In this document: positions 2 through 15,148 of the stretch, one piece after another | Numbering within the stretch: position 1 is the first letter of the stretch | How the letters are laid out: the number at the start of each line of letters is the position of its first letter | Assembly: GCA_046760505.1 (NCBI GenBank) | Contig: JBHIEG010000035.1 | Span: 1-16,972 of the forward strand | Direction of reading: 5' to 3' | Length of the DNA: 16,972 nucleotides | DNA from: Candidatus Hydrothermarchaeota archaeon | Lineage (GTDB): Archaea > CAYFZR01 | Position numbers and translations under genes: made by a program | Notes under the pieces: model-generated | What the model was told of the DNA's origin: nothing | Databases searched by the model: none | Seen by the model: the letters and a program-made list of their open reading frames with translations, nothing else

Positions 2-226
2 CACTATATAGCCTATATTACTGATAAAATCCTCAAAAAACATCAGGATATGCATAAAGGGCTCTCACGCTTCTTGGATGAAAATGGATTATCAGGGTTA
101 GCAGAATTGTTCAGAGAATTGGACCTTCTTAGACAAGGAAAATGGTATGGAGGCCAAGAAAACGGAGAAACATCTGAGAGAGCCATTCAAATCCTAGAAA
201 AGATTAGAGGGATAGGAGGTATATGA
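2..226 (+). CDS. HEPN-domain protein, 5'-partial (runs off window)
   Basis: Frame 2 is open from base 2 to TGA 224-226: HYIAYITDKILKKHQDMHKGLSRFLDENGLSGLAELFRELDLLRQGKWYGGQENGETSERAIQILEKIRGIGGI. It has the HEPN-type H-x-G segment and R-X4-Y (RQGKWY), resembles 3308..3682, and lies 4 nt upstream of an MNT gene. Not in the ORF track. Confidence 0.8.
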   Translation, partial: HYIAYITDKILKKHQDMHKGLSRFLDENGLSGLAELFRELDLLRQGKWYGGQENGETSERAIQILEKIRGIGGI

Positions 227-230
227 CGCT

Positions 231-845
231 ATGCTAGAGCATTTCTCTGGGGAAGATAGAAGTTTAATTGAAAGTTTCATCAAAGAAGTTAAAAATCTGA
301 TACCTAGTCTTAGCACTATCGTGCTATATGGATCTATGGCAAGAGGAGACTATCACAAGGACTCTGATATCGATGTTTTATTGGTAATAGAAGAGGAAAA
401 GCCAAACAAATACCTCCCTGAAGTCACAAAGATAATTTCAAGCCTTAAACCACATAGGGAGATCAGACCAGTGCTAACGAATTTAAAAGATGTCGAATAC
501 TCCCTTATCAACGAGGTTCTCAGAGATGGAGTTGTTCTCTTTGGAAAAATAGTTGTTAGTCCAGACAATCTTGGGCTTAGACCCTATCAAATAATCTCTT
601 ATGATCTCAGTAATGTAAACGGAACTGTAAGAGCTAGAGTTGCTCGAAGAATATATGGTTACACCTCACGTAAAAAAATAGGAAAAGAAATTAAAGAATA
701 CAAATATGAAGGGCTTGTTAGCAGGAGAGATTGTTTTGTTTTAGGAAAGGGCGTGATTGCCTTACCAAAAGAGGATGCCAATGGATTCAAAACATTTTTA
801 GAAAGGAACAAAGTCACATACAAAACCCTAGATATTTGGGTTTAA
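231..845 (+). CDS. Minimal nucleotidyltransferase (MNT, Pol-beta superfamily) with C-terminal Cas2/PaaX-like ferredoxin-fold extension
   Basis: GS-X10-DxD motif (YGSMARGDYHKDSDID), MNT end motif (RDGVVLF), GGAGGT RBS at 215-220, then an extra domain starting IISYDLS. Confidence 0.85.
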   Translation: MLEHFSGEDRSLIESFIKEVKNLIPSLSTIVLYGSMARGDYHKDSDIDVLLVIEEEKPNKYLPEVTKIISSLKPHREIRPVLTNLKDVEYSLINEVLRDGVVLFGKIVVSPDNLGLRPYQIISYDLSNVNGTVRARVARRIYGYTSRKKIGKEIKEYKYEGLVSRRDCFVLGKGVIALPKEDANGFKTFLERNKVTYKTLDIWV

Positions 846-1044
846 TCCATAAATTCTATAACAACTGTAACCGAAATACTCTCAGTCCTTGTTTTTATAA
901 CTATAGTTAGATTAAGATTAAATGGAGACATATTGCTCTATCCGATATGATGATAATGTATATACGCCTTTTATAGTTTTAATGAAAATCAACTATTCAT
1001 CTCCCTTTTTTCTTCAACGCATCAAAATTCCTCAGATAATTAGG

Positions 1045-1149
1045 GAGAATATGAAGAGAATATCATTTAATGAGAATTATGAATCTTGGGTCATGTAACC
1101 CATTTCCCTTCAGGAGAATACTTAGAATAAAAGGCTTTTAGAATAAAAG
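1045..1149 (+). repeat. Cluster of short AGAATA-core direct repeats upstream of the integrase
   Basis: GAGAATAT at 1045 and 1056, GAGAATAC at 1114, TTAGAATAAAAG at 1122-1133 and 1138-1149. Confidence 0.35.
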
Positions 1150-1227
1150 AAATTATACTACTTGTCAATCTTAATTTTAAGCACGTAACATGCTTATTTT
1201 TAAACCTATACCTCTTTGACCACAAAT

Positions 1228-1876
1228 ATGTCTCAAACATTATTGAAAAGTGTACCCATACTTTTTTTTGAAGCTTTTCTCTCACTCCAATCTTGATTTA
1301 GAAAGCATATTGAAAGATTTTGAAGATTTTCTAAAAGTAAATCATCTCTATACTACCAGAAAATTTCTCCTGCATGTTAAAAAAATGATTCCTTCTTGCG
1401 AAGATGCTCAAAAATATAGAGAATATCTGATCCGCAAATCCTTATCAGAGACTCACATAAACAACAACCTGAAGGCGATAGAGTACTATTTAGATTTTCA
1501 TGGAATTTCTGTAAAATTAAAAAAATTGAACAGAAGAAGAAAGCTTCCAGAAATACTTACAGAAAAAGAGGTTAAGAGAATTCTCTACGCATGCGATAAC
1601 TACAGGGACTATGCAATTATCCAGACACTCATTTCTACTGGCATAAGAGCCTCAGAGCTTTGCAATTTAAACATAGAGAATGTAGACCTTGAAAACAGGG
1701 TGATAAGGATTGTAGACGGTAAAGGAGGCAGAGACGGTATAGCAATAATGTCTGAGAAATGTTCAAAAGCAATTCAGGAATATCTGAAGAGAAGGAATGA
1801 AAGTCTTTCTAATGCTCTCTTCTTAAACATAAATGGTAAGAGGGTAATTTTCCTGATCGAATTTGCAGGTTTTTAA
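1228..1876 (+). pseudogene. Tyrosine recombinase/integrase (XerC/XerD/XerA-like), C-terminally truncated
   Basis: LPEILTEKEV, RDYAII, TGIRASEL (catalytic Arg) and DGKGGRD (catalytic Lys) are present. HxxR, H/W and catalytic Tyr are absent, and similarity ends at about LFLNINGKR (~1843). Likely ATG 1228 (TTTTAAA box ~24 nt upstream) is out of frame by one T in the T8 run 1262-1269. The ORF track uses GTG 1250. Confidence 0.8.
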
Positions 1877-2061
1877 GAGACTAGCGATGTCGTACAGATC
1901 TTTCCACAATTTTGCTCTGGTGAAATCCGTTTCCATTATGACTTTTAAGGCTTCTATCCTTCCTAGTACGGCTCCAATCTTGTATGTAAGTAGGAGTCCA
2001 GGTAAGGGATATAGATGTAAACATCTTCTTTGAGCTTGAATTTCTTTAGCTCTTCCACCAT
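1823..2061 (-). pseudogene. AbiEii/DUF1814-like nucleotidyltransferase remnant (C-terminal part, frameshifted)
   Basis: Minus strand reads MVEELKKFKLKEDVYIYIP / frameshift / PGLLLTYKIGAVLGRIEALKVIMETDFTRAKLWKDLYDIASLLKTCKFDQE. K-x-x-A-x3-R ... KD-x-YD-I (KDLYDI at 1886-1903) is the characteristic C-terminal signature of this family. Confidence 0.55.
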
Positions 2062-2273
2062 GCCGCTATGGGAGGAGTAAACGCAGAGGGAGGGATCCCT
2101 GAAATAGGAATCGTAATACTTCTCACACAATTTAATTCTTCATAGAGACAGTTCCTCATGACTTAAGATGGGATAGGGAAAAGGTTCAACTTACACAAGA
2201 TAAGGTCAAGATCTTTCGGAACAGAAAAAATTCAAAGGTAATCTTATATACAGAGAAATTTACTTTTTAAACC

Positions 2274-2459
2274 ATGGTCACGATAGAAGAAATAAAAAAG
2301 ATGCAAAGATTGGTCGAGATTTTCGGTAAAACCGAAAAACCTGGTGAAAAAAAGAAAACACAGATCTATAAAGATGCAGGGATATTTAAAGATCTATTTC
2401 CGGAGGAAAAAAATTCTGTGGAAATCTTTCATAAACTCAGAGAAGAGCAGCTGGGCTAG
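2274..2459 (+). CDS. Putative VapB-type antitoxin
   Basis: 61 aa, charged, C-terminal NSVEIFHKLREE typical of archaeal antitoxins. Directly upstream of a PIN gene, with CTTATATA box at 2243-2250. Confidence 0.55.
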   Translation: MVTIEEIKKMQRLVEIFGKTEKPGEKKKTQIYKDAGIFKDLFPEEKNSVEIFHKLREEQLG

Positions 2460-2465
2460 ATCTTT

Positions 2466-2679
2466 ATGCAGACATTGTATATCGATGCTAATATCGTTTT
2501 GAATTTGTGGAGGAAGGAGATAGACCCGAAGACTGGTAGAGAATTATGGAAAGGGTCAGGCAGCATCCTTGAGAAAGTCGAAAGAAAAGATTACAGATGC
2601 ATTCATTACAAGGGACAGAAAATTAAAAATGAAAGCAGAGAAAGTAATAACCATAAAAGAGCCAGAAGAACTAAATTAG
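2466..2679 (+). pseudogene. vapC: PIN-domain (VapC) toxin with internal deletion and frameshift
   Basis: N-terminus LYIDANIVLNLW carries the first PIN Asp. From ~2593 another frame gives the PIN C-terminus TDAFITRDRKLKMKAEKVITIKEPEELN* (TAG 2677-2679). The middle helices with the other acidic residues are missing. Confidence 0.75.
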
Positions 2680-2733
2680 ATCCAAATGAAAGCGATCGTA
2701 ATCTCATTGTAAGGATTTTAATTATAGACGGAC

Positions 2734-3315
2734 TCAATAAGTCCAGATGGGAATCTCCTTCCACCTTGCATTGAATCTTTCTAGGGTTTTGGTTATTTCT
2801 GGAGCATTTCGCCTGTCAGTTATCAAAACGCCCTTGCCTATCTTTTCAGCGCGAATCCTATCAGCAATTCCTACATATCGCTTAACTTTTTTCTCGTTTT
2901 CTTTCATGTAGGTTGAGGTTCCTCCATATAATGCTCTGTAGAGTTTGTTTCTTGTATTCTGGTCCAGTTCAGAGGTATCGTAGGCAATTATCATTTTAGG
3001 CTTCAGTTCGATATCTTCTACGGAAACAATTACAGGTTTTCCAAAGAGCAAGATGCCTTCTCCTGACAATGCACCGGAAATAGTCGGTTCATCCTTTAAT
3101 TCTTCAATGCTTAGATGAGTGAGCTGAAATTTCTCAGGAGCCATGGCATTTATTTTTCTTACCACATCATCTTTCTTCTCTGAGTAAATTATGGCAAGAT
3201 CAATATCAGAGTCTCTCGTGGCTTCTCCTCTGGCAATTGAGCCAAAAAGAACTATGGATAAGACTCCTTCAAAATCTTTGATCTTATTAGAGAACTCAAT
3301 GGCTTGTCTAAACAT
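2734..3315 (-). CDS. MNT nucleotidyltransferase with C-terminal Cas2/PaaX-like extension (paralog of 231..845)
   Basis: FGSIARGEATRDSDID (GS-X10-DxD), EGILLFGK, then MIIAYDTS...RNKLYRALYG...IGKGVLI...IPIW, which parallels the first copy. Confidence 0.88.
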   Translation of the reverse strand: MFRQAIEFSNKIKDFEGVLSIVLFGSIARGEATRDSDIDLAIIYSEKKDDVVRKINAMAPEKFQLTHLSIEELKDEPTISGALSGEGILLFGKPVIVSVEDIELKPKMIIAYDTSELDQNTRNKLYRALYGGTSTYMKENEKKVKRYVGIADRIRAEKIGKGVLITDRRNAPEITKTLERFNARWKEIPIWTY

Positions 3316-3682
3316 TCAAAAACCCCTCACAATACTTTTTGATCTTAGAATACAGAGATTTCGCTTTTCTGGCCATGTCTCCATTCTTCCCGAGACCATA
3401 AATTTGGCTAGGTCTCATGCCCTCCAATTCTTTAAACCAGGCCGCTATCTCAGCGCTCTCATCGCCAAAATATTTCTCCCTTTTTAAAGCACCAAAGATT
3501 TTATTATGCCTGATATCTTTATCTGGTCTGAGTCTTCCTGACACATGGAGGGCAGCGTTGATATAATGGGAAGATATAAGCATACAAAGATCTATAATAG
3601 TCTCATGATCCTCTTCATCATCCAGTTTACTAAGTGTGCCCTGAAGCTTCTTTATCTTTTCGGCATGCCCTTCTATTCTCAT
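3308..3682 (-). CDS. HEPN-domain protein
   Basis: 124 aa, predicted helical, with HYINAAL, IRHNK and R-X4-Y (RPSQIY). Overlaps the downstream MNT start by 8 nt. Confidence 0.8.
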   Translation of the reverse strand: MRIEGHAEKIKKLQGTLSKLDDEEDHETIIDLCMLISSHYINAALHVSGRLRPDKDIRHNKIFGALKREKYFGDESAEIAAWFKELEGMRPSQIYGLGKNGDMARKAKSLYSKIKKYCEGFLNV

Positions 3683-3684
3683 GC

Positions 3685-3806
3685 TGTTATTTCAATATAA
3701 CAAAAAAGATATATAAGCTTAACTGTTGTATCAATATAACAGGAAAAAAATTTATATCAGTACAACAGAAACGATTCATCTGGGCATATGTTGTATTAAT
3801 ACAACA
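3685..3806. promoter_or_regulatory. Four 18-bp palindromic operator-like sites flanking the TATA box of the HEPN-MNT operon
   Basis: TGTTATTTCAATATAACA 3685-3702; TGTTGTATCAATATAACA 3724-3741; ATTTATATCAGTACAACA 3750-3767; TGTTGTATTAATACAACA 3789-3806 (perfect palindrome). Minus-strand TTATATA at 3716-3710. Confidence 0.7.
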
Positions 3807-3948
3807 AAAAAAGATACACGCCCTTCATTGTAAGCAAAAGGCTGAGCGCCTTGTTAATAAAAATTTAAATACCATGACATACTACCTTTAATTCAAAAAT
3901 GACATCCGGAGAACAAAGCAGTCCCGAAAAATCACTCTGTAAACACGA

Positions 3949-3988
3949 CTGATAACCAAGAGGTCCGGGTTTCAAATCCCGCGCCCCA
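3949..3988 (+). tRNA. Degenerate 3' half of tRNA-Ile(GAT); probable attR site, not a functional tRNA
   Basis: CTGATAA (anticodon loop) CCAAG AGGTC CGGGT TTCAAAT CCCG CGCCCCA follows the archaeal tRNA-Ile 3' half with small defects. There is no 5' anticodon stem, D-arm or acceptor 5' strand upstream. Confidence 0.75.
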
Positions 3989-4099
3989 TCTAAACCTATA
4001 CACAGCTGTGTTTTTGGATTAAAAGGATAGCAGAGATTATTTCAATTATGGAGAAATACGATAGAAAACATAATGAAATAGAAAGGTACAGGGAGATAA

Positions 4100-4276
4100 A
4101 TGCACTGCGAATTTTTCTGTGTGAAGTGTAAGGGTTGTATCATACTGAATGCGACTCCTCAAATGATAGAAATCGGGGATGATTGCAGTGCCCATGCCCC
4201 CTGCGAATATCAGGGTGAACTTGAAGATCCATTTGGATGTTTAATATTACAAGCAATAGAAGGAATGTACGCTTAA
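4100..4276 (+). CDS. Small Cys-rich protein (58 aa, 7 Cys)
   Basis: ATG 4100 after GGGAG (4091-4095), TAA 4274-4276. MHCEFFCVKCKGCIILNATPQMIEIGDDCSAHAPCEYQGELEDPFGCLILQAIEGMYA. Not in the ORF track. Confidence 0.55.
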   Translation: MHCEFFCVKCKGCIILNATPQMIEIGDDCSAHAPCEYQGELEDPFGCLILQAIEGMYA

Positions 4277-4556
4277 GTTTCATATCCTACTTCTGCATTA
4301 ATGGTATCTAGGAGGGTTACCGTATCCACACTTTTATAAGTTGAGCAACTTTAAGTAATGCTCTTTGCTAAATTTTTTATCTCCGCTAAAAGTCCCTTTC
4401 CCCATTCTTTATCCAGGTCATGGAGCTCATTTCCCAACAGGAGTAGTTTTTCTACTTCTTCACTTAACTGGCTAGATTTATTCTTGCTCCTTCTGGAGAT
4501 GTATCAAGTCTGATAAGCTTATATAATTTTAGAAAAACAGAATTTACTAGGTAAAC

Positions 4557-4840
4557 ATGCCCCTCCAGCATTTAAAACACCAAAAGATCTGATTTTCTGG
4601 CAGTACGCAAAGATTATTTCTGAATCGGCTGGAGTAGGAAAAAAGAAGTACGCTTTCGTGATGATAGATTCAAAAAACCCATTTGAAACTTCTTTTCTCT
4701 CTATATGAAGATATGGGAACATTGGATATAGAAGACATCTCCAAACTTTGTAAAATCTGTGATCTTACCTCGAAATGTCCTGATAAGGAAAAATTGATGT
4801 TTTATGTCTTGAAGGTTTGTCCAGAAAGAGTATAAAATGA
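4557..4840 (+). pseudogene. Multiply frameshifted, internally deleted gene, possibly of an archaeal HNH-endonuclease family
   Basis: Joined frames: M/PPAFKTPKDLIFWQYAKIISESAGVGKKKYAFVM/DRFKK // LKLLFSLYEDMGTLDIEDISKLCKICDLTSKCPDKEKL/VLCLEGLSRKSIK*. The family assignment is from my recall of similar N- and C-termini; no HNH motif remains. Confidence 0.45.
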
Positions 4841-4994
4841 TAGAAATTTTTCATTTTGATTCAGAATCTTCTAACGCATGTTTTATCCCCAAGATATAGG
4901 AAATGGGTTCTTTTGACATTAATTCTTCTAACCAGTTTCTTCTAATTTTTTATGCAGAGGCTGTATACCGCGCGAACAGTTAGTAGACCATCGT

Positions 4995-8962: not shown

Positions 8963-11407
8963 CTAAGCATATCTATATTCTAGGAATCTTCTTAACAATA
9001 TTTCAAAGAAAAACAGGAAAAGTGCAGCCTTTACGAGCACTTCCCACAGGTTTTCTACTTTGGTTTCAAATTGCTTTGTTTCCTCAATTTCTCTTAATAG
9101 ATCTTTTTTTAAAGAATTTATTTCCTTGAAGTCGTAATATTTTCCTCCTGTGATGGAACAAATCTTCTTTAATGTTTCTGTGTCGGGATTGAGTTCTTTT
9201 ATCTCTTCAGGATAGTTAACAGAAACTCCCTCTTCATCTGAATTCATCTTGTCTCCATAAACCTTGAATAAAAAGAAACCGGTATGATTCGGTCTAAATG
9301 AATATTGATACAGGTTTAGATCTATTTGCTCCAATTTTAAAGCCTTATTTTCACTTCTTTCATACAATTCAACATTCTTCATCGGAAAAGAAGTCATTAT
9401 GTTTAATATTATGTTCTCACCCAATTCTGAATTTCTAGAAATTATCTTTATAGGTTTTCTGTATTCTAAATCTCCTATTATCCAGTTAATTATATTCTTC
9501 ATCAGTTTTGGATGATCTTTCCATGTTATAAAGGGATACCCCCAAGAATTACCGTTGTCTGTGGTGTAAGCAGCAACTCTTCCCAATCCGTAGTGCCAGA
9601 CGGTGAGAATCATGTTCATATCATCAGTGGCAATCAAAGACTGGGCGCCTGGTTTTTTGCTCACCAAATTAAATCCACTTACACTGGAAGAAATTTCTAT
9701 ATCTTTTGTTATGAAGTGTTCTTCATCAAGAATCTGCAGTGAATACCGTTCTTTTTTTTCCTCCTCTTTTTTCCCCAGGAAAAAACTTAATCTCTGGTAG
9801 GCAGTGGGTCTGAAGTACTCACCTCCTGTTTTTCTTGCCAGTGCTTGCATAAATGGCTCATACGTATCGCTTCCCACGCCAATTGTATAAATAGGGGTTC
9901 CAGAAGTTTCAGCATACTGTATAGCCTCCTCAGGAAAGGCAGTAAGACCATCAGATATCAACACTATGTATTTCTTTCCTGAATAACCTGAGAGTAAGTT
10001 ATTTGCCTTTATCAAGGCCGGGGTTATGTAAGTTCCTTCTCCAGAACTCAATCTGGATATTTTCTCGGTTAAATCTCCCATGTCTGTTATGGGAGAGAAA
10101 TCTTTTATTACATAAGGATCCACATCAAAAGCAATTACACCAACGAAATCTCTTGGATTTAAGTCGTTTATTAGATTAATGGCAATTGCTTTCTCCAGAT
10201 CTAACTTTGATGCTCCGCCAAAAGCCTGGCCTGTGCTGCCGGAAATGTCTAAGACAAAAACGATTCCTAACCTTTCTTCCCTTCGTTTTGGCTCAGGAGA
10301 AGAGGTAACTGGTAATATCTTTTCCAGTGAACTTTTATAGTAAGAACCGTAGTCGAATGATTTATCTCCTCCGATAACCAACAATCCTCTACCCTCTCTC
10401 ACGTAATCCCTCAATTCACTTATCATAGAATATGAAATTCTATTTAGAGGAATATTATCAAGTATAACTGCATCATATTTATTTAAATCATCAATAGATG
10501 TACTAGAAGCCTTGGTTAAAATGTAATCATTCTTTATTTCGTTTATGATGTAATTTGAACTGTCTGAGGAGATATAAATTATTTTTGGCCTTTCAACGAT
10601 CTCTAAAGATGCATATCTCACGTTGTTATCAGGGAAGTAATCATTTTTAGGCTCTATGACTGCTTTTATTGTATGAAATCCTTCATCGTTGGTTTTGTAT
10701 GTATACTCGATTATTTCTGACTCTTTTTTCTGAACTTTATGCACGTTGTAAACCAGCCTATCATCTATAAACAATTTGAAGTCATATTCAGCGGTTAAAT
10801 TTCCAAAGTTTTTTATCTTCGATTTTATTGCAATAGGACTTCCCGGATAACTCTTTTCTGGCAAAATTAAGTCCGTTATTGCCACGTCACTCCTGTATTT
10901 TGTTATTCCGAGTGCGTATATGCTAATGCCCCTCTCCCTTGCTATCATGCTCGCCTCAATAGGATCCTTGCCGTAGTTGTTTTGTCCATCCGATATGAGC
11001 AGGATCTTTCCTCCCTCCATCTTCAAGGCTGCATCTTGAATCGCTTTTCCTATGGAAGTCCTGTATTCAGGAGAAAATGAGATTAATTTGACATTTTCCT
11101 TTCCGATTTCTTCTCCAAAGAAACTATATAGGTTATTTGTCTGGTTATTTGCGTTATAAAGCATCATGCTCTTGGATTTATCAAGCAAAATATAGAGAGT
11201 TGGTTTTTCCACGGTACTCGTTTCAAATGAATATACTCCCACGATGGATAAAACTATCAGCGCAAGTACCAAAAATCTCAGGAAAAGTATTATAAACCTC
11301 TTATTCCCTAAAAAAGTCTTCTCAGATCTGTGTAATAAGTAATAATAAAGAATCGCTAGAGGTACGAGTAACGATAACCAGAGTTCATTCCCTAAATAGA
11401 TGTTCAT
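8963..11407 (-). CDS. Membrane-anchored double-vWA protein with Ig/CARDB-like and GATase-like domains
   Basis: Two MIDAS motifs (LLDKSKS, VLDISGS, each with later ISDG), Ig-like segment ending DYFPDNN, GATase-like GLLVIGG...GLGRV, N- and C-terminal TM segments. ATG 11407 overlaps the upstream TGA (ATGA). Confidence 0.88.
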   Translation of the reverse strand: MNIYLGNELWLSLLVPLAILYYYLLHRSEKTFLGNKRFIILFLRFLVLALIVLSIVGVYSFETSTVEKPTLYILLDKSKSMMLYNANNQTNNLYSFFGEEIGKENVKLISFSPEYRTSIGKAIQDAALKMEGGKILLISDGQNNYGKDPIEASMIARERGISIYALGITKYRSDVAITDLILPEKSYPGSPIAIKSKIKNFGNLTAEYDFKLFIDDRLVYNVHKVQKKESEIIEYTYKTNDEGFHTIKAVIEPKNDYFPDNNVRYASLEIVERPKIIYISSDSSNYIINEIKNDYILTKASSTSIDDLNKYDAVILDNIPLNRISYSMISELRDYVREGRGLLVIGGDKSFDYGSYYKSSLEKILPVTSSPEPKRREERLGIVFVLDISGSTGQAFGGASKLDLEKAIAINLINDLNPRDFVGVIAFDVDPYVIKDFSPITDMGDLTEKISRLSSGEGTYITPALIKANNLLSGYSGKKYIVLISDGLTAFPEEAIQYAETSGTPIYTIGVGSDTYEPFMQALARKTGGEYFRPTAYQRLSFFLGKKEEEKKERYSLQILDEEHFITKDIEISSSVSGFNLVSKKPGAQSLIATDDMNMILTVWHYGLGRVAAYTTDNGNSWGYPFITWKDHPKLMKNIINWIIGDLEYRKPIKIISRNSELGENIILNIMTSFPMKNVELYERSENKALKLEQIDLNLYQYSFRPNHTGFFLFKVYGDKMNSDEEGVSVNYPEEIKELNPDTETLKKICSITGGKYYDFKEINSLKKDLLREIEETKQFETKVENLWEVLVKAALFLFFFEILLRRFLEYRYA

Positions 11408-13314
11408 ATCAAATTCTCCGTATAATACATCCATTCTACAAGAAGGAATACCATAACCAAAGAAAGTATGAAAGGATACCACAACTTTTTGTTTTCAGTC
11501 AAGGTTATGGACTCAGGTTTTTGAATCAGTTCTTCACCGGATAATGATTGTTTAAAGGCAATATCTGATTCCATTTCATCCAGAAGATTTACAGCGAGAT
11601 ACTCTCTTAAACCATTATGTTCTACTGTGTATATGCCGGTATGATCCAGTGGAAAGGGCGTGGAGGGTTTTAGTGAAGAGGTTACTCCTCGCGGATCGTT
11701 TATGAGAACCTCTGTATTTGCAGTAATCACTGAACCAGTCAGTGCATTCTTCTGAGAAATGATTCCCTGATTCCTGCTGGTCCATTCTACAACATGGTAC
11801 CAAAAGACAGGAAAAGAAGGGGTGAATTGAAAGTTTGTCGTTTTGTCTGGATAGAAACTCATGAAGACTACTTTACCTGCTGAAATTCTTAGCGATATGA
11901 GAGGATTTTTATCTGGTGATTCGGCTATTATGAATGATCCGTTTTTAGGCTCATTGCCAATGTATCTTTCCAAAAAAACGTTCTTGAAGGAAACATCCTT
12001 TAATATTTGGTGTTCCGCTACCGGAATGATGTCTGTTTTTTTCTCCATGACGCTTTCCAGATTTACTGGCAGTATATCTTTAATCAAACCTATCGTTCGA
12101 AGATCTTTCCCAAGCACTATTAATCCGCCGCCTTTTCTGACATAATCACCCAAATCCTTATCAATTCCCGGCAAAATATAGTCGTAAGGTACATCTCCCA
12201 AGATTACAGCATCAAAATCATCCAAATTTGAAGGTATTACTGGAGGGTATGCTAAACTTAATTTCACATTGGGCAGGGATTCTAATGCCAGCCTTAAATA
12301 TGGAGAAGCCTTTTTTCTCTCTACAAGCAATACTCTATGCATCTTTATCTCTGGTAGTACACCGTAGGCAACATTATCAATTTCAAAATCATCTTCAGCA
12401 TCGATTGAAAATCTTAAGATGTGAGCATCCAATGTGGTTGAACCGGTATAAGTCATGGACTTTGCCTCTTTAGATTTCAAAAAAATTTTTTCTGTGTGAA
12501 TTAATTTTTTATCCAAGTTTATATTTAACTTTATTTCTTCTGAATTTTCTTTATAGTTTTTTATTCTCAAAAATGTGTAGAATACATTCAAATTGCTCGG
12601 ATCTCTTGCTACTGTAGAGCCAACTATGCCAATGTTCTTTCCCCTATTGTTAATATCTAAGAAAAGGACGTTTATGTCATTGGACCTTAATAGGTTCGCT
12701 GCTTCTTCTAGGGGATAGCCCAGCTGGCTGTAAGAAATATCTGATAGAACATAAACAGTTTTTTTGCCTTTTTTTCCTTCCAATATAGTGTTTGCAAGCA
12801 AAATTGCGTCTCCAATATTTGTCTTAGTAGACTTGCATTCAAGCGAATTAACAGCATTTTTTACTTCCCTATAATTATCAGTAGGATGAATTATTAATTC
12901 TGGATTGTTTTTAGCCAATATTACTCCTGCATTTCCATCTATTGAATCTAAAAGTGAGAACAATATTTCTTTTGCTTTTTCAAATCTTGTCTCTCCAAAA
13001 TCTCTTGCATTCATACTTGCAGAAGCATCTATGATGAATATTACCTCGTCTATCTTTTTCTTCGCTCCTATCGTGTATGGGTTGGCAAGTGAGAGAACCA
13101 AAAGACCCAGTATAAATAGTTGAAGAAGCAGGAGAGGTAAATGTGTTATCCTTTTTATTGTAATTTTTTTCTTTCTCTCCTTTATACTCCTTAAAAAGAA
13201 CATAAGAGTGGAAAAACTTTCCTTCTTCGTTTTTTGCCATATCAAGTAGAGGATTATTACTGGAATCCATATAAGTAGGAAAATCAGGGCATTTGGATTT
13301 GCGATATTAACCAT
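11404..13314 (-). CDS. BatA-type N-terminal TM + vWA domain protein with GATase-like domain
   Basis: NPNALIFLLIWIPVIILYL...FSTLMF...LLLLQL...LANP (BatA-like), IIDASASM (MIDAS), VRKGGGLIV, C-terminal TM LLVEW. Confidence 0.88.
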   Translation of the reverse strand: MVNIANPNALIFLLIWIPVIILYLIWQKTKKESFSTLMFFLRSIKERKKKITIKRITHLPLLLLQLFILGLLVLSLANPYTIGAKKKIDEVIFIIDASASMNARDFGETRFEKAKEILFSLLDSIDGNAGVILAKNNPELIIHPTDNYREVKNAVNSLECKSTKTNIGDAILLANTILEGKKGKKTVYVLSDISYSQLGYPLEEAANLLRSNDINVLFLDINNRGKNIGIVGSTVARDPSNLNVFYTFLRIKNYKENSEEIKLNINLDKKLIHTEKIFLKSKEAKSMTYTGSTTLDAHILRFSIDAEDDFEIDNVAYGVLPEIKMHRVLLVERKKASPYLRLALESLPNVKLSLAYPPVIPSNLDDFDAVILGDVPYDYILPGIDKDLGDYVRKGGGLIVLGKDLRTIGLIKDILPVNLESVMEKKTDIIPVAEHQILKDVSFKNVFLERYIGNEPKNGSFIIAESPDKNPLISLRISAGKVVFMSFYPDKTTNFQFTPSFPVFWYHVVEWTSRNQGIISQKNALTGSVITANTEVLINDPRGVTSSLKPSTPFPLDHTGIYTVEHNGLREYLAVNLLDEMESDIAFKQSLSGEELIQKPESITLTENKKLWYPFILSLVMVFLLVEWMYYTENLI

Positions 13315-14179
13315 GGGAAGCACCTAGGAATTCTAGAAAAACGTCATGTATGGGCTGATCCGTTGTTGTAAGGAAGTAATCTGCGTTAACGTCTCTGCAA
13401 AACCTGTTAATGGATCGAATGTGTCTTTCAACTTCTCCGGTGTACCTGTCTATTTCTTTTTTTGTCAGCGATATTCTTTCTTTTTCCTGGGTCTCGAGAT
13501 CTAGTATTTCGTATTCGCCCTTAAAAGGCAAAAATATTTCTCCCCTATCTAAAATTTGGAATACGATAATATCGTTTCCTTTAGCCGCTAGTTTATAGAG
13601 GGACCACCTTATCGTATCTAAATCCAAGAGAAGATCGGAGATTAGAATTATGAGTCTCTTTCCCTGGGTGACCTGCATGTATTCTCTAACAACCTTCTTC
13701 AGATCCGTTTTTCCTTGGGGTTTTATCTTTTCTAATGCATTAAGTATCCTTATGAACTGCCTTCTTCCTCTCCTAGAATGTATTCTTGTATTTAAATGAT
13801 CAGAAAAGGTGAACAAGCCTATTCTATCGTTATTTTGGGCCACAAGATACGAAAAACCTGCTGCAGATTTTGTTGCATAGTCAATTTTCGATTCGGCATC
13901 AGAAGAGTAAAGCATGCTGTTGCTGGTGTCTAACAGGATATGCGCTATTATTTCTCTCTCTTCCTCGTACCTCTTCACATGCAGTTTCTCGGTCCTAGCA
14001 AAAATCTTCCAGTCAACCGTCTTGTAATCATCGCCAGGAGAGTATTCCCTGTAATCAATTGTTTCCAGTCCTTTTCCTCTAAGCCTTGATCTATGTTCTC
14101 CCGAATAAGCGGTAATCATCTTCTTTTTTACCATTAAGTTTAGTTTTCTGAGCATTCTATAGAAACTAGGATCGTACAA
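13307..14179 (-). CDS. DUF58 family vWA-like protein (MoxR partner)
   Basis: GEHRSRLRGKGLETIDYREYSPGDDYKTVDWKIFAR, LLDTSNSM, LISDL. TTG start after GAGGTG. Confidence 0.92.
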   Translation of the reverse strand: MYDPSFYRMLRKLNLMVKKKMITAYSGEHRSRLRGKGLETIDYREYSPGDDYKTVDWKIFARTEKLHVKRYEEEREIIAHILLDTSNSMLYSSDAESKIDYATKSAAGFSYLVAQNNDRIGLFTFSDHLNTRIHSRRGRRQFIRILNALEKIKPQGKTDLKKVVREYMQVTQGKRLIILISDLLLDLDTIRWSLYKLAAKGNDIIVFQILDRGEIFLPFKGEYEILDLETQEKERISLTKKEIDRYTGEVERHIRSINRFCRDVNADYFLTTTDQPIHDVFLEFLGASHG

Positions 14180-14185
14180 ACTCAG

Positions 14186-15148
14186 TTATGACACCTCTTC
14201 CAGAATGGATCTTATAACTTCATCAGTTGATATTCCCTGAGCTTCAGCCTCAAAATTCAGTATGAGTCTGTGTCTTAGCACAGGGAACATCATTTTTTTT
14301 ATATCCTCCTCGCTTACGTAAGTCCTTCCATGGATCAAGGACCTTGCTTTTGATGCTAAAATTAATGAAATAGAGGCTCTCGGAGAGGCTCCATACTCGA
14401 TATATTTTTTGGCAACTTTGCTCGCGTGATTGGAATTTGGTCTTGTTGAGGCGATGAGGGAAACAGCGTATTCTTCTATGTCACTTGCTATCGGAATCAT
14501 TCTCGCAAGTTTTTGTAGTTCAATCAACTCGTTTCTGCTTAGTATTTTTCTTACGCTTGGCTCTTGATTCTTCGTGTAAAGTCTCACTATGTTCATTTCC
14601 TCTTCACGATCAGGATAGTCGATGAGGATCATTAGCATGAATCGGTCTAGTTGAGCCTCAGGCAAGGGATACGTTCCCTCCATCTCAATGGGATTTTGTG
14701 TGGCCAAGACCAAAAATGGAGTTGGCAGTTTGAATGTTGTTTTTCCTACCGTGACCTGCCTTTCCTGCATGCACTCGAGCAGGGCACTCTGAGATTTTGG
14801 CGTAGCCCTGTTTATTTCATCTGCGAGCACGATATTCGTGAAGATCGGCCCTTCTGAAAAAACAAATTTTTTTGTCTTAGTGATTTTGTCTTCCTCTATT
14901 ATGTAGGTTCCAGTGATATCAGATGGCATCACATCGGGAGTGCACTGTATCCTGCTAAACTCTAAGTCTAAAACCTTCGAAAAGGTTCTTATCATCATCG
15001 TTTTACCAAGACCGGGTAGGCCTTGGAGTAGCGCATGACTATCGGAAAGCAATGTAATGAGCAACTGCTCAATTACCTCTTCCTGTCCCACTATCGCCTT
15101 GGATATTTCCTTTTTTATATCACCGAAGATCTCCTTGGATATTCTCAT
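14186..15148 (-). CDS. moxR: MoxR-family AAA+ ATPase
   Basis: Walker A GLPGLGKT, RIQCTPDVMPSDITG, Walker B VLADEINRA, ATQNPIEMEGTYPLPEAQLDRF, GASPRAS, VLRHR. Confidence 0.96.
   Translation of the reverse strand: MRISKEIFGDIKKEISKAIVGQEEVIEQLLITLLSDSHALLQGLPGLGKTMMIRTFSKVLDLEFSRIQCTPDVMPSDITGTYIIEEDKITKTKKFVFSEGPIFTNIVLADEINRATPKSQSALLECMQERQVTVGKTTFKLPTPFLVLATQNPIEMEGTYPLPEAQLDRFMLMILIDYPDREEEMNIVRLYTKNQEPSVRKILSRNELIELQKLARMIPIASDIEEYAVSLIASTRPNSNHASKVAKKYIEYGASPRASISLILASKARSLIHGRTYVSEEDIKKMMFPVLRHRLILNFEAEAQGISTDEVIRSILEEVS

Follow-up and report, generated by a model that had tools for sequence, protein, structure and literature searches.

Two HEPN-MNT modules with a basic, ferredoxin-like extra domain and repeated promoter boxes in a hydrothermarchaeal contig

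Why would an enzymatic antitoxin carry a second, strongly basic domain? HEPN/MNT pairs, in which a HEPN protein is coupled with a minimal nucleotidyltransferase (MNT), rank with the most abundant gene pairs of archaea, and we know of no account of how their expression is controlled. The question is raised by the stretch of DNA analyzed here, hereafter the window, which is all of contig C35 (16,972 nt) in an archaeal assembly of 2.17 Mb and which contains two HEPN-MNT modules whose MNT proteins each bear an additional C-terminal domain (C-domain) of about 90 amino acids (aa). In the available portions of Makarova et al. (2009; PMC2701414), a DNA-binding component is proposed to be missing from MNT-HEPN systems; if the role favored below were correct, the C-domain would supply it. 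A widespread subfamily in which the antitoxin has a basic extra domain, and in which alone the promoters carry repeated boxes, would be a concrete and testable answer.

Two diverged HEPN-MNT gene pairs

In both modules the HEPN gene precedes a co-oriented MNT gene. Module 1 is on the + strand, where HEPN1 (positions 2 to 226), the 3′ part of a putative toxin gene cut by the contig end (74 aa), is followed after 4 nt by MNT1 (231 to 845; 204 aa). Module 2 is on the − strand and consists of HEPN2 (3308 to 3682; 124 aa), a divergent HEPN protein and putative RNase toxin, and MNT2 (2734 to 3315; 193 aa), the end of the former gene and the start of the latter overlapping by 8 nt. MNT1 and MNT2 aligned from end to end (33% identity over 198 columns; E value, 9e-27), and their ~90 C-terminal amino acids are therefore homologous rather than alike by a chance pattern. 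HEPN1 and HEPN2 shared 30% identity over 60 aa (E value, 7e-6). The region is best explained as containing a type VII (HepT/MntA-like) HEPN→MNT module in two copies that have diverged from each other, an explanation that we hold, taken as a whole, with moderate confidence.

An earlier, sequence-only reading of this DNA had described both MNT proteins as ~200 aa long, with an intact GS-x10-DxD core and a shared extension, and had quoted the strings IISYDLS, VRARVARRIYG, LGKGVI, and DIW from one protein and IIAYDTS, TRNKLYRALYG, IGKGVL, and PIW from the other; the open reading frames (ORFs) and motifs were as described and all strings were present in the translations. The nucleotidyltransferase core comprises residues 1 to ~110 of MNT1 (231 to 560, + strand; G34-S35-x10-D46-x-D48) and residues 1 to ~99 of MNT2 (3019 to 3315, − strand; G25-S26-x10-D37-x-D39), and L32, G34, S35, D46, and D48 were invariant among 25 MNT sequences. 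Pfam identified PF18765 and PF01909 in MNT1 (E values, 1.3e-11 and 1.5e-11) and in MNT2 (1.9e-11 and 2.9e-12), spanning residues ~10 to 106 of each protein with nothing beyond, and the NCBIfam model MntA_antitoxin scored 38.9 bits (MNT1) and 38.4 bits, both under the cutoff of 60. MntA/MNT antitoxins were returned by a PDB profile search and by Foldseek alike; the latter matched MNT1 to the MNT antitoxins 8xeo, 7ae9, and 7bxo at E values of ~4e-6 and, with the full-length MNT1 model, gave nothing but MNT matches.

No match to HEPN1 or HEPN2 was found in Pfam, NCBIfam, PADLOC, or PDB sequences, and with Pfam at an E value of ≤10 no family was returned for HEPN2 or for five of seven relatives, the other two giving unrelated weak matches only. 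HEPN2 has 29 homologues, almost all of them 124 aa long and all lacking a Pfam domain, in whose alignment H39, H59, R68, R90, Y95, G96, N100, and A107 are invariant; HEPN1 fitted positions 39 to 118 of this partner-family profile (E value, 5.9e-19, in a small search). An Atlas search with HEPN2 gave a weak HEPN lead at rank 14 (score, 0.92; PF05168 in 13% of members). When a profile of 41 partner sequences was compared using hhalign with one of 36 PF05168-type HEPN proteins (from the window's genome and 40 other archaeal genomes), the partner aligned along its whole length over 127 columns (probability, 96.7%; E value, 3.4e-10), and four control comparisons gave 0.2 to 0.3%; earlier, small profiles had given 40.9%. 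The assignment of the upstream genes to HEPN thus held up, and by these profiles the partner family is a remote HEPN relative that is visible only by profile-profile comparison. The partner's R90-x4-Y95-G96 aligned with the HEPN motif region, with no His at R+5.

The pairing recurs. In a survey of genes encoding MNT–C-domain fusions, the partner ORF was directly 5′ of the fusion in 13/13 genes with upstream DNA (window, sister genome, and loci from metagenome-assembled genomes [MAGs] or metagenomes) and in 13 of 22 fusions in sampled genomes (11, plus 2 with a larger profile); a second sample gave 7 of 13. An unassigned ORF occupied the 5′ position in three further of the 22 (106 to 127 aa) and in two more of the 13.

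Among characterized systems, the modules are closest in makeup to type VII HepT/MntA of Shewanella oneidensis, Aphanizomenon, and Legionella. Both combine a HEPN protein with a minimal nucleotidyltransferase carrying GS-x10-DxD, in the HEPN motif region of both an invariant Tyr accompanies the conserved Arg, and the MNT structures best match the N-terminal half of the window MNTs. However, the window MNTs add a basic, ferredoxin-like domain of ~90 aa; the window HEPN escapes Pfam and has R-x4-Y in place of RX4HXY, its invariant H59 lying elsewhere; and promoters of the window family carry repeated boxes.

The same two superfamilies also make up the archaeal COG1708/COG2250-type pairs (PF01909 and PF05168; canonical pairs hereafter), and the window's genome has 20 PF05168 matches at an E value of ≤0.01 and two HepT matches. 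Its MNT proteins beside PF05168-type HEPN genes lack the C-domain and are 92 to 184 aa long, a range that corrects the earlier figure of ~100 aa for stand-alone MNTs. None of them is among the four C-domain matches of this genome, which lie on contigs C35, C8, and C37 only: C35, the window itself, has two copies, C8 has a truncated remnant, and C37 has a fourth module (locus L007). HEPN-first gene order was considered as a mark distinguishing the window modules from canonical pairs and was rejected. Where an adjacent MNT was found at a canonical HEPN locus of the window's genome (11 loci), the MNT gene came first in 10. In other archaeal genomes (L113 to L140), 13 canonical pairs were HEPN first and 9 were MNT first, in contrast to the published statement that MNT is almost always first.

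Fold, charge, and distribution of the C-terminal domain

The C-domain covers residues 110 to 204 of MNT1 (558 to 845, + strand) and residues ~100 to 193 of MNT2 (2734 to 3018, − strand). The MNT2 copy matched the domain's profile at an E value of 9.1e-45. The C-terminal pieces of the two proteins, scanned alone, matched no Pfam family at an E value of ≤10, and across 150 homologues Pfam never covered the C-domain and gave no Cas2 match at ≤0.01. The AlphaFold2 (AF2) model of full-length MNT1 had a pLDDT of 88.6 and a pTM of 0.56, with a lower-confidence linker at residues ~105 to 118, which suggests that the C-domain is an independent module. Modeled alone from 53 sequences, MNT1 residues 110 to 204 gave a pLDDT of 94.6 and a pTM of 0.81, with a predicted topology of b-a-b-b-(b-b)-a-b, that is, a ferredoxin-like core with an inserted short hairpin. 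The extension therefore models as a ferredoxin fold, as the sequence-only reading had expected, and its best structural neighbors were all ferredoxin-like domains.

That reading had also called the extension Cas2/VapD/PaaX-like. With Cas2 (PF09827), VapD, and the PaaX central domain, the C-domain shares a predicted ferredoxin-like b-a-b-b-a-b core, a hydrophobic first strand that in many cases has YD at its end, and a basic first helix with YG after it. In a Foldseek search of the C-domain against the PDB, nothing was found at an E value of ≤1e-3; the geometrically best rows were Cas2 chains (6k2e_B: probability, 0.90; E value, 0.24; TM score, 0.48/0.52; rmsd, 2.7; 91 columns), and reexamination of the top 1,000 rows gave the same picture. 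Comparison of 204 C-domain sequences with 30 archaeal Cas2 sequences using hhalign gave 13.4% over 18 columns only, corresponding to strand 1 ("iisYDls" against "vvYDI"), the strand that had been flagged earlier. Neither C-domain matched Cas2 (PF09827) at an E value of ≤10; no PaaX Pfam family was found in either MNT, the N-terminal half of which is a nucleotidyltransferase and not a winged helix; and no VapD family or chain appeared in the Pfam scans or among the best 50 structural matches listed. The predicted fold thus stands, with kinship to Cas2, VapD, or PaaX unproven.

These matches bear on one of three roles proposed at the outset for the extra domain, namely, a nuclease, a dimerization module, or an operator-binding module. 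A Cas2/VapD-like metal-dependent nuclease would account for the shared fold class, for the Cas2 chains among the best sound Foldseek rows (6k2e_B), and for the local strand 1 match. However, the Asp of the YD motif, which was expected to be conserved, was D in 114 of the 204 sequences, S in 42, N in 20, and T in 7; a Cas2-type catalytic role is unlikely on this count, and we give the nuclease reading hardly any credence. No cas genes were found in the window, and the one Cas2 of the genome is encoded on another contig.

A marked property of the fusions is positive charge. Fusion C-domains had a median net charge of +10 (n = 151; range, −3 to +19), with +9 (pI 9.9) for MNT1 and +6 (pI 9.6) for MNT2. 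A basic residue was present at position 134 in 193 of 204 sequences and at position 136 in 159, and R139 was present in 161; these three conserved basic sites lie on helix 1 of the model, with others on the hairpins, and K148 was well kept. G161 (204/204) and G143 (198/203) were nearly or fully invariant, and aromatic residues were well kept at positions 124 (Y124 in MNT1), 142, 157, and 203. One alternative is that the C-domain is an RNA-binding module resembling an RRM or domain V of EF-G, which would bring the nucleotidyltransferase or the complex to RNA or to the ribosome; in its extreme form, the MNT itself would be the toxin, acting by RNA modification with the HEPN protein as partner. 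We consider this alternative improbable.

A three-sequence C-domain profile was searched against 1.84 billion representatives clustered at 50% identity and identified 447 clusters at an E value of ≤1e-3, 70 of them at ≤1e-10, a family that is covered by no protein-family library searched. For 149 of the best 150 sequences, which had a full-length match, the C-domain followed more than 80 N-terminal residues in 98, 31 to 80 residues in 16, and 30 or fewer in 35, and the long forms mostly had PF01909/PF18765 before it. It was present in 87 of 401 sampled archaeal genomes (E value, ≤1e-4), where 57 of 119 matches, as counted from the match table, were in open frames of at least 171 aa. Named relatives belonged to Methanocellales, Hydrothermarchaeales, Hodarchaeaceae, Thermoplasmatota, Hadarchaeota, and Methanobacteriota MAGs, and structural neighbors in the ESM Atlas were all archaeal MNT fusions or hypothetical proteins of 93 to 121 aa without a family. 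A locus search with a narrower alignment identified 4 genome and 9 metagenome loci; a single-protein scan of genome contigs for related loci gave no match.

Other arrangements were also seen. ORFs of 163 to 194 aa at L088, L147, L148, L154 to L156, L158, and L160 matched the C-domain profile with no detectable MNT part, which looks like a third architecture of the family; at L088 the match covers residues 14 to 90 and is followed by a longer C-terminal extension. The rare relatives P0173/P0049 (355 aa) have a helical N-terminal extension of ~165 aa. L010 and L003 were rejected as stand-alone C-domains, as they start inside an MNT tail and are truncated remnants. The sequence-only reading knew of no characterized example of the fusion; in agreement, no family model for it was found, and no description of the MNT–C-domain architecture was found in full-text searches or in the available portions of PMC3710099 and PMC2701414, the supplementary tables of which may list it.

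Promoter boxes and a candidate operator-binding role

Four related imperfect palindromes of 17 to 19 nt lie 5′ of HEPN2, and all are given here as on the − strand. Box O1 (TGTTATATTGAAATAACAG; 3684 to 3702) is 2 to 20 nt 5′ of the HEPN2 ATG, between the start codon and a TATA-like element (TTATATAT; 3709 to 3716) that is centered ~30 nt 5′ of the ATG and that, given this position and general knowledge of archaeal promoters, is a putative promoter element. Box O2 (TGTTATATTGATACAACAG; 3723 to 3741), an imperfect palindrome, is directly 5′ of the TATA-like element, which is thus flanked by O1 and O2. Farther upstream are O3 (CTGTTGTACTGATATAA; 3752 to 3768), a degenerate related copy that is 82% complementary to 3723 to 3739, and O4 (TGTTGTATTAATACAACAT; 3788 to 3806), which is palindromic, has three mismatches to the box consensus on either strand, and forms a repeat pair with 89% complementarity to 3724 to 3741. 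Counting both strands, the 19-nt box pattern had five matches, at three sites within 3684 to 3807 and none elsewhere in the 16,972 nt, where 0.04 would be expected and none of 200 shuffles reached five.

Similar boxes accompany related modules. At L007, the fourth module of the genome, three palindromes of this kind, each of 17 nt (TGTTATAT..TATAACA), lie 40 nt apart, and the upstream ORF was matched by neither HEPN profile. Among MNT1-like loci, similarity of the upstream DNA begins at about −70 and comprises two boxes and the TATA region, with a spacer that varies; sequences farther upstream are unrelated. For comparison across loci, a motif-free self-similarity statistic was used, which took the 110 nt preceding an operon and judged their best ungapped match to themselves, in direct or inverted orientation, against 100 dinucleotide shuffles. 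At a P value of ≤0.05, self-similarity was found for 11/25, 5/9, and 3/5 fusion operons in a first, second, and third (blind) set, whereas HEPN/MNT pairs without the C-domain gave 0/8 in the window's genome and 0/21 in other archaeal genomes. Overall, this amounts to 19/39 fusion operons against 0/29 domain-less pairs (Fisher P value of 3e-6, with loci that are not independent).

Of the three roles proposed at the outset, operator binding is the one favored here: the domain appears to be independent, it is highly positive, it co-occurs with boxes that bracket promoters, and such boxes are also present where the upstream partner is unrelated (L007). We therefore take operator binding to be the most likely role of the C-domain, with about an even chance of being right. 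The principal alternative is a protein-protein module that docks on the HEPN dimer or dimerizes the MNT, replacing the C-terminal helix with which other MNT antitoxins grip or plug the HEPN cleft (PMC11586414). Neither docking nor dimerization needs a net charge of about +10, however, and by eye the HEPN partner shows no marked acidity. The C-domain is also found alone and downstream of ORFs without a match to the partner profile (L007, L070, L077, and L082), and a docking or dimerizing role would leave the boxes that accompany it unexplained, so that this alternative seems rather unlikely to us.

Direct support exists for the gene pair and its conservation, for the homology of the HEPN and MNT proteins, for the fold and charge of the C-domain, and for the boxes and their link to C-domain operons, whereas toxicity, nucleotidylation, DNA binding by the C-domain, and repression are inferred. 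The HEPN protein would be an RNase toxin, which the MNT would nucleotidylate and so neutralize by analogy with MntA, described in the available text of PMC7641770 as polyadenylylating a Tyr beside the HEPN active site using GS-x10-DxD. The obvious acceptor would be the invariant Y95, five residues after the invariant R90 (R90-x4-Y95). A presumably flexible linker would join the MNT core to the ~90-aa basic domain, predicted to be ferredoxin-like and a member of an unnamed archaea-wide family, and this domain would bind the repeated or palindromic boxes flanking the TATA box of its own operon promoter. In this scheme the antitoxin would act as a repressor of the operon that encodes it, in the manner of type II antitoxins, besides neutralizing the toxin enzymatically. 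The likeness to type II antitoxins lies in a proposed separate domain that binds palindromic operators over the promoter; the differences are that the C-domain is ferredoxin-like rather than ribbon-helix-helix (RHH), AbrB, or helix-turn-helix (HTH) and that neutralization would be enzymatic. If correct, an enzymatic antitoxin of type VII would gain the operator-binding autoregulation typical of type II.

Several observations weigh against this proposal. One relative, P0185 (270 aa), has an N-terminal IclR/MarR-type HTH before the MNT and C-domain and is therefore a poor fit with the C-domain as the DNA binder. Significant self-similarity was lacking in 20/39 fusion operons. The statistic was devised after the first two sets had been seen, leaving the third (3/5) alone blind; many of the compared loci are related to each other; and starts were set at the first ATG/GTG/TTG, so that some "upstream" stretches may be misplaced. 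Palindromes with 7-nt arms were not enriched (fusion, 2/25; stand-alone, 2/21; canonical, 1/8), and repeated exact 7-mers reached a P value of ≤0.05 in 4/21 loci only. A half-site motif, TGTWA-N3-11-TWACA, was present in 11/25 loci of the first set (0/300 shuffles) and in 1/13 new loci and was rejected as a general motif; the boxes therefore differ between lineages. Overall, the charge of stand-alone C-domain homologues is neutral or acidic, and their promoters are rarely self-similar (3/16 and 0/9). The HEPN protein or a factor encoded elsewhere could be the box binder instead. Finally, the RNase activity of the HEPN partner is not assured, because the canonical Rx4-6H is absent at the aligned site (R-x4-Y); according to the available text of Anantharaman et al. 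(PMC3710099), HEPN-T members often replace the motif His and keep a His elsewhere.

Stand-alone relatives and neighboring DNA

Stand-alone homologues provide a second context for the C-domain. Twenty-six were examined (87 to 189 aa), 20 of the 26 regions having been hand-picked from short-frame matches, and the fractions given here are thus no estimate for the family. In 16/26, the homologue was directly 5′ of a gene for a Cdc48/VAT-like AAA ATPase, with gaps of −37 to +27 nt; at these loci (L087, L090 to L098, L101, L102, and L107 to L110) it is the first gene and encodes ~100 to 150 aa. CDC48_N and CDC48_2 were present in 9/9 of the ATPase genes scanned with Pfam. Some stand-alone homologues have a palindrome beside the TATA box, e.g., TTTGTTTACGTAAACAAA in L108. 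In one genome family, a C-domain match was found in 15/15 genomes. The cdc48 gene is a member of the HSR1 operon.

This adjacency, together with the CDC48_N and CDC48_2 domains, could mean that the C-domain is an adaptor or a degron-like module that sets antitoxin turnover through the Cdc48/VAT unfoldase-proteasome pathway. The evidence for this is gene adjacency in largely hand-picked regions, however, and the window has no Cdc48 gene next to its fusions. An equally good reading is that of a small autoregulator whose gene opens a stress operon, as that of HSR1 of Archaeoglobus does in the available text of PMC9133787, and a Cdc48 link is in our view very improbable. The stand-alone homologues resemble HSR1/Phr in being the first gene, here before that of the ATPase; they differ in having no HTH match, HSR1/Phr being winged-helix proteins (PMC9133787, available text). 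These small proteins may be first-gene regulators like HSR1, or they may be Cdc48 cofactors.

Returning to operator binding, it is possible, and proposed here tentatively, that the C-domain defines a new archaea-wide family of ferredoxin-fold, sequence-specific DNA binders, which would act in autoregulation where fused to an MNT and as ~110-aa regulators of Cdc48/VAT operons where stand-alone, the latter in many small-genome archaea. The relatives before Cdc48 genes may thus signal an unrecognized regulator of archaeal proteostasis genes.

Between the two modules of the window lies a truncated XerA-like integrase ORF (1250 to 1876, + strand), a tyrosine recombinase covering model positions 22 to 189 of 263, which stops after ~208 aa with no continuing frame seen. 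A split integrase follows directly after the fourth module on C37 (L007:2721-3223), and the modules appear to be embedded in mobile DNA that has decayed. Two small ORFs on the + strand, of 61 aa (2274 to 2459) and, directly after it, 102 aa (2466 to 2774), had no Pfam match at an E value of ≤0.01. The second, whose N-terminus (LYIDANIV) is PIN-like by eye, converges onto the 3′ end of MNT2 with a 41-nt overlap, and together they may be a decayed VapBC pair. The ~1.2 kb beyond the boxes (3807 to 4994) has no ORF of at least 90 aa, whichever frame is read, and neither a tRNA nor an Rfam match; the window as a whole likewise contained no tRNA or Rfam family. A phylum-level search took in two genomes only, that of the window and one of the same genus, and the organism therefore belongs to a sparsely sampled lineage. 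Elsewhere, the window encodes YbjQ, an ArsR-Yip1 protein, a metallo-beta-lactamase-fold protein, and a MoxR-DUF58-VWA/BatA operon. The last is unrelated to the modules and comprises four large genes on the − strand (8963 to 15148), encoding a MoxR AAA protein (AAA_3), a DUF58 protein, a VWA/BatA protein, and a VWA protein.

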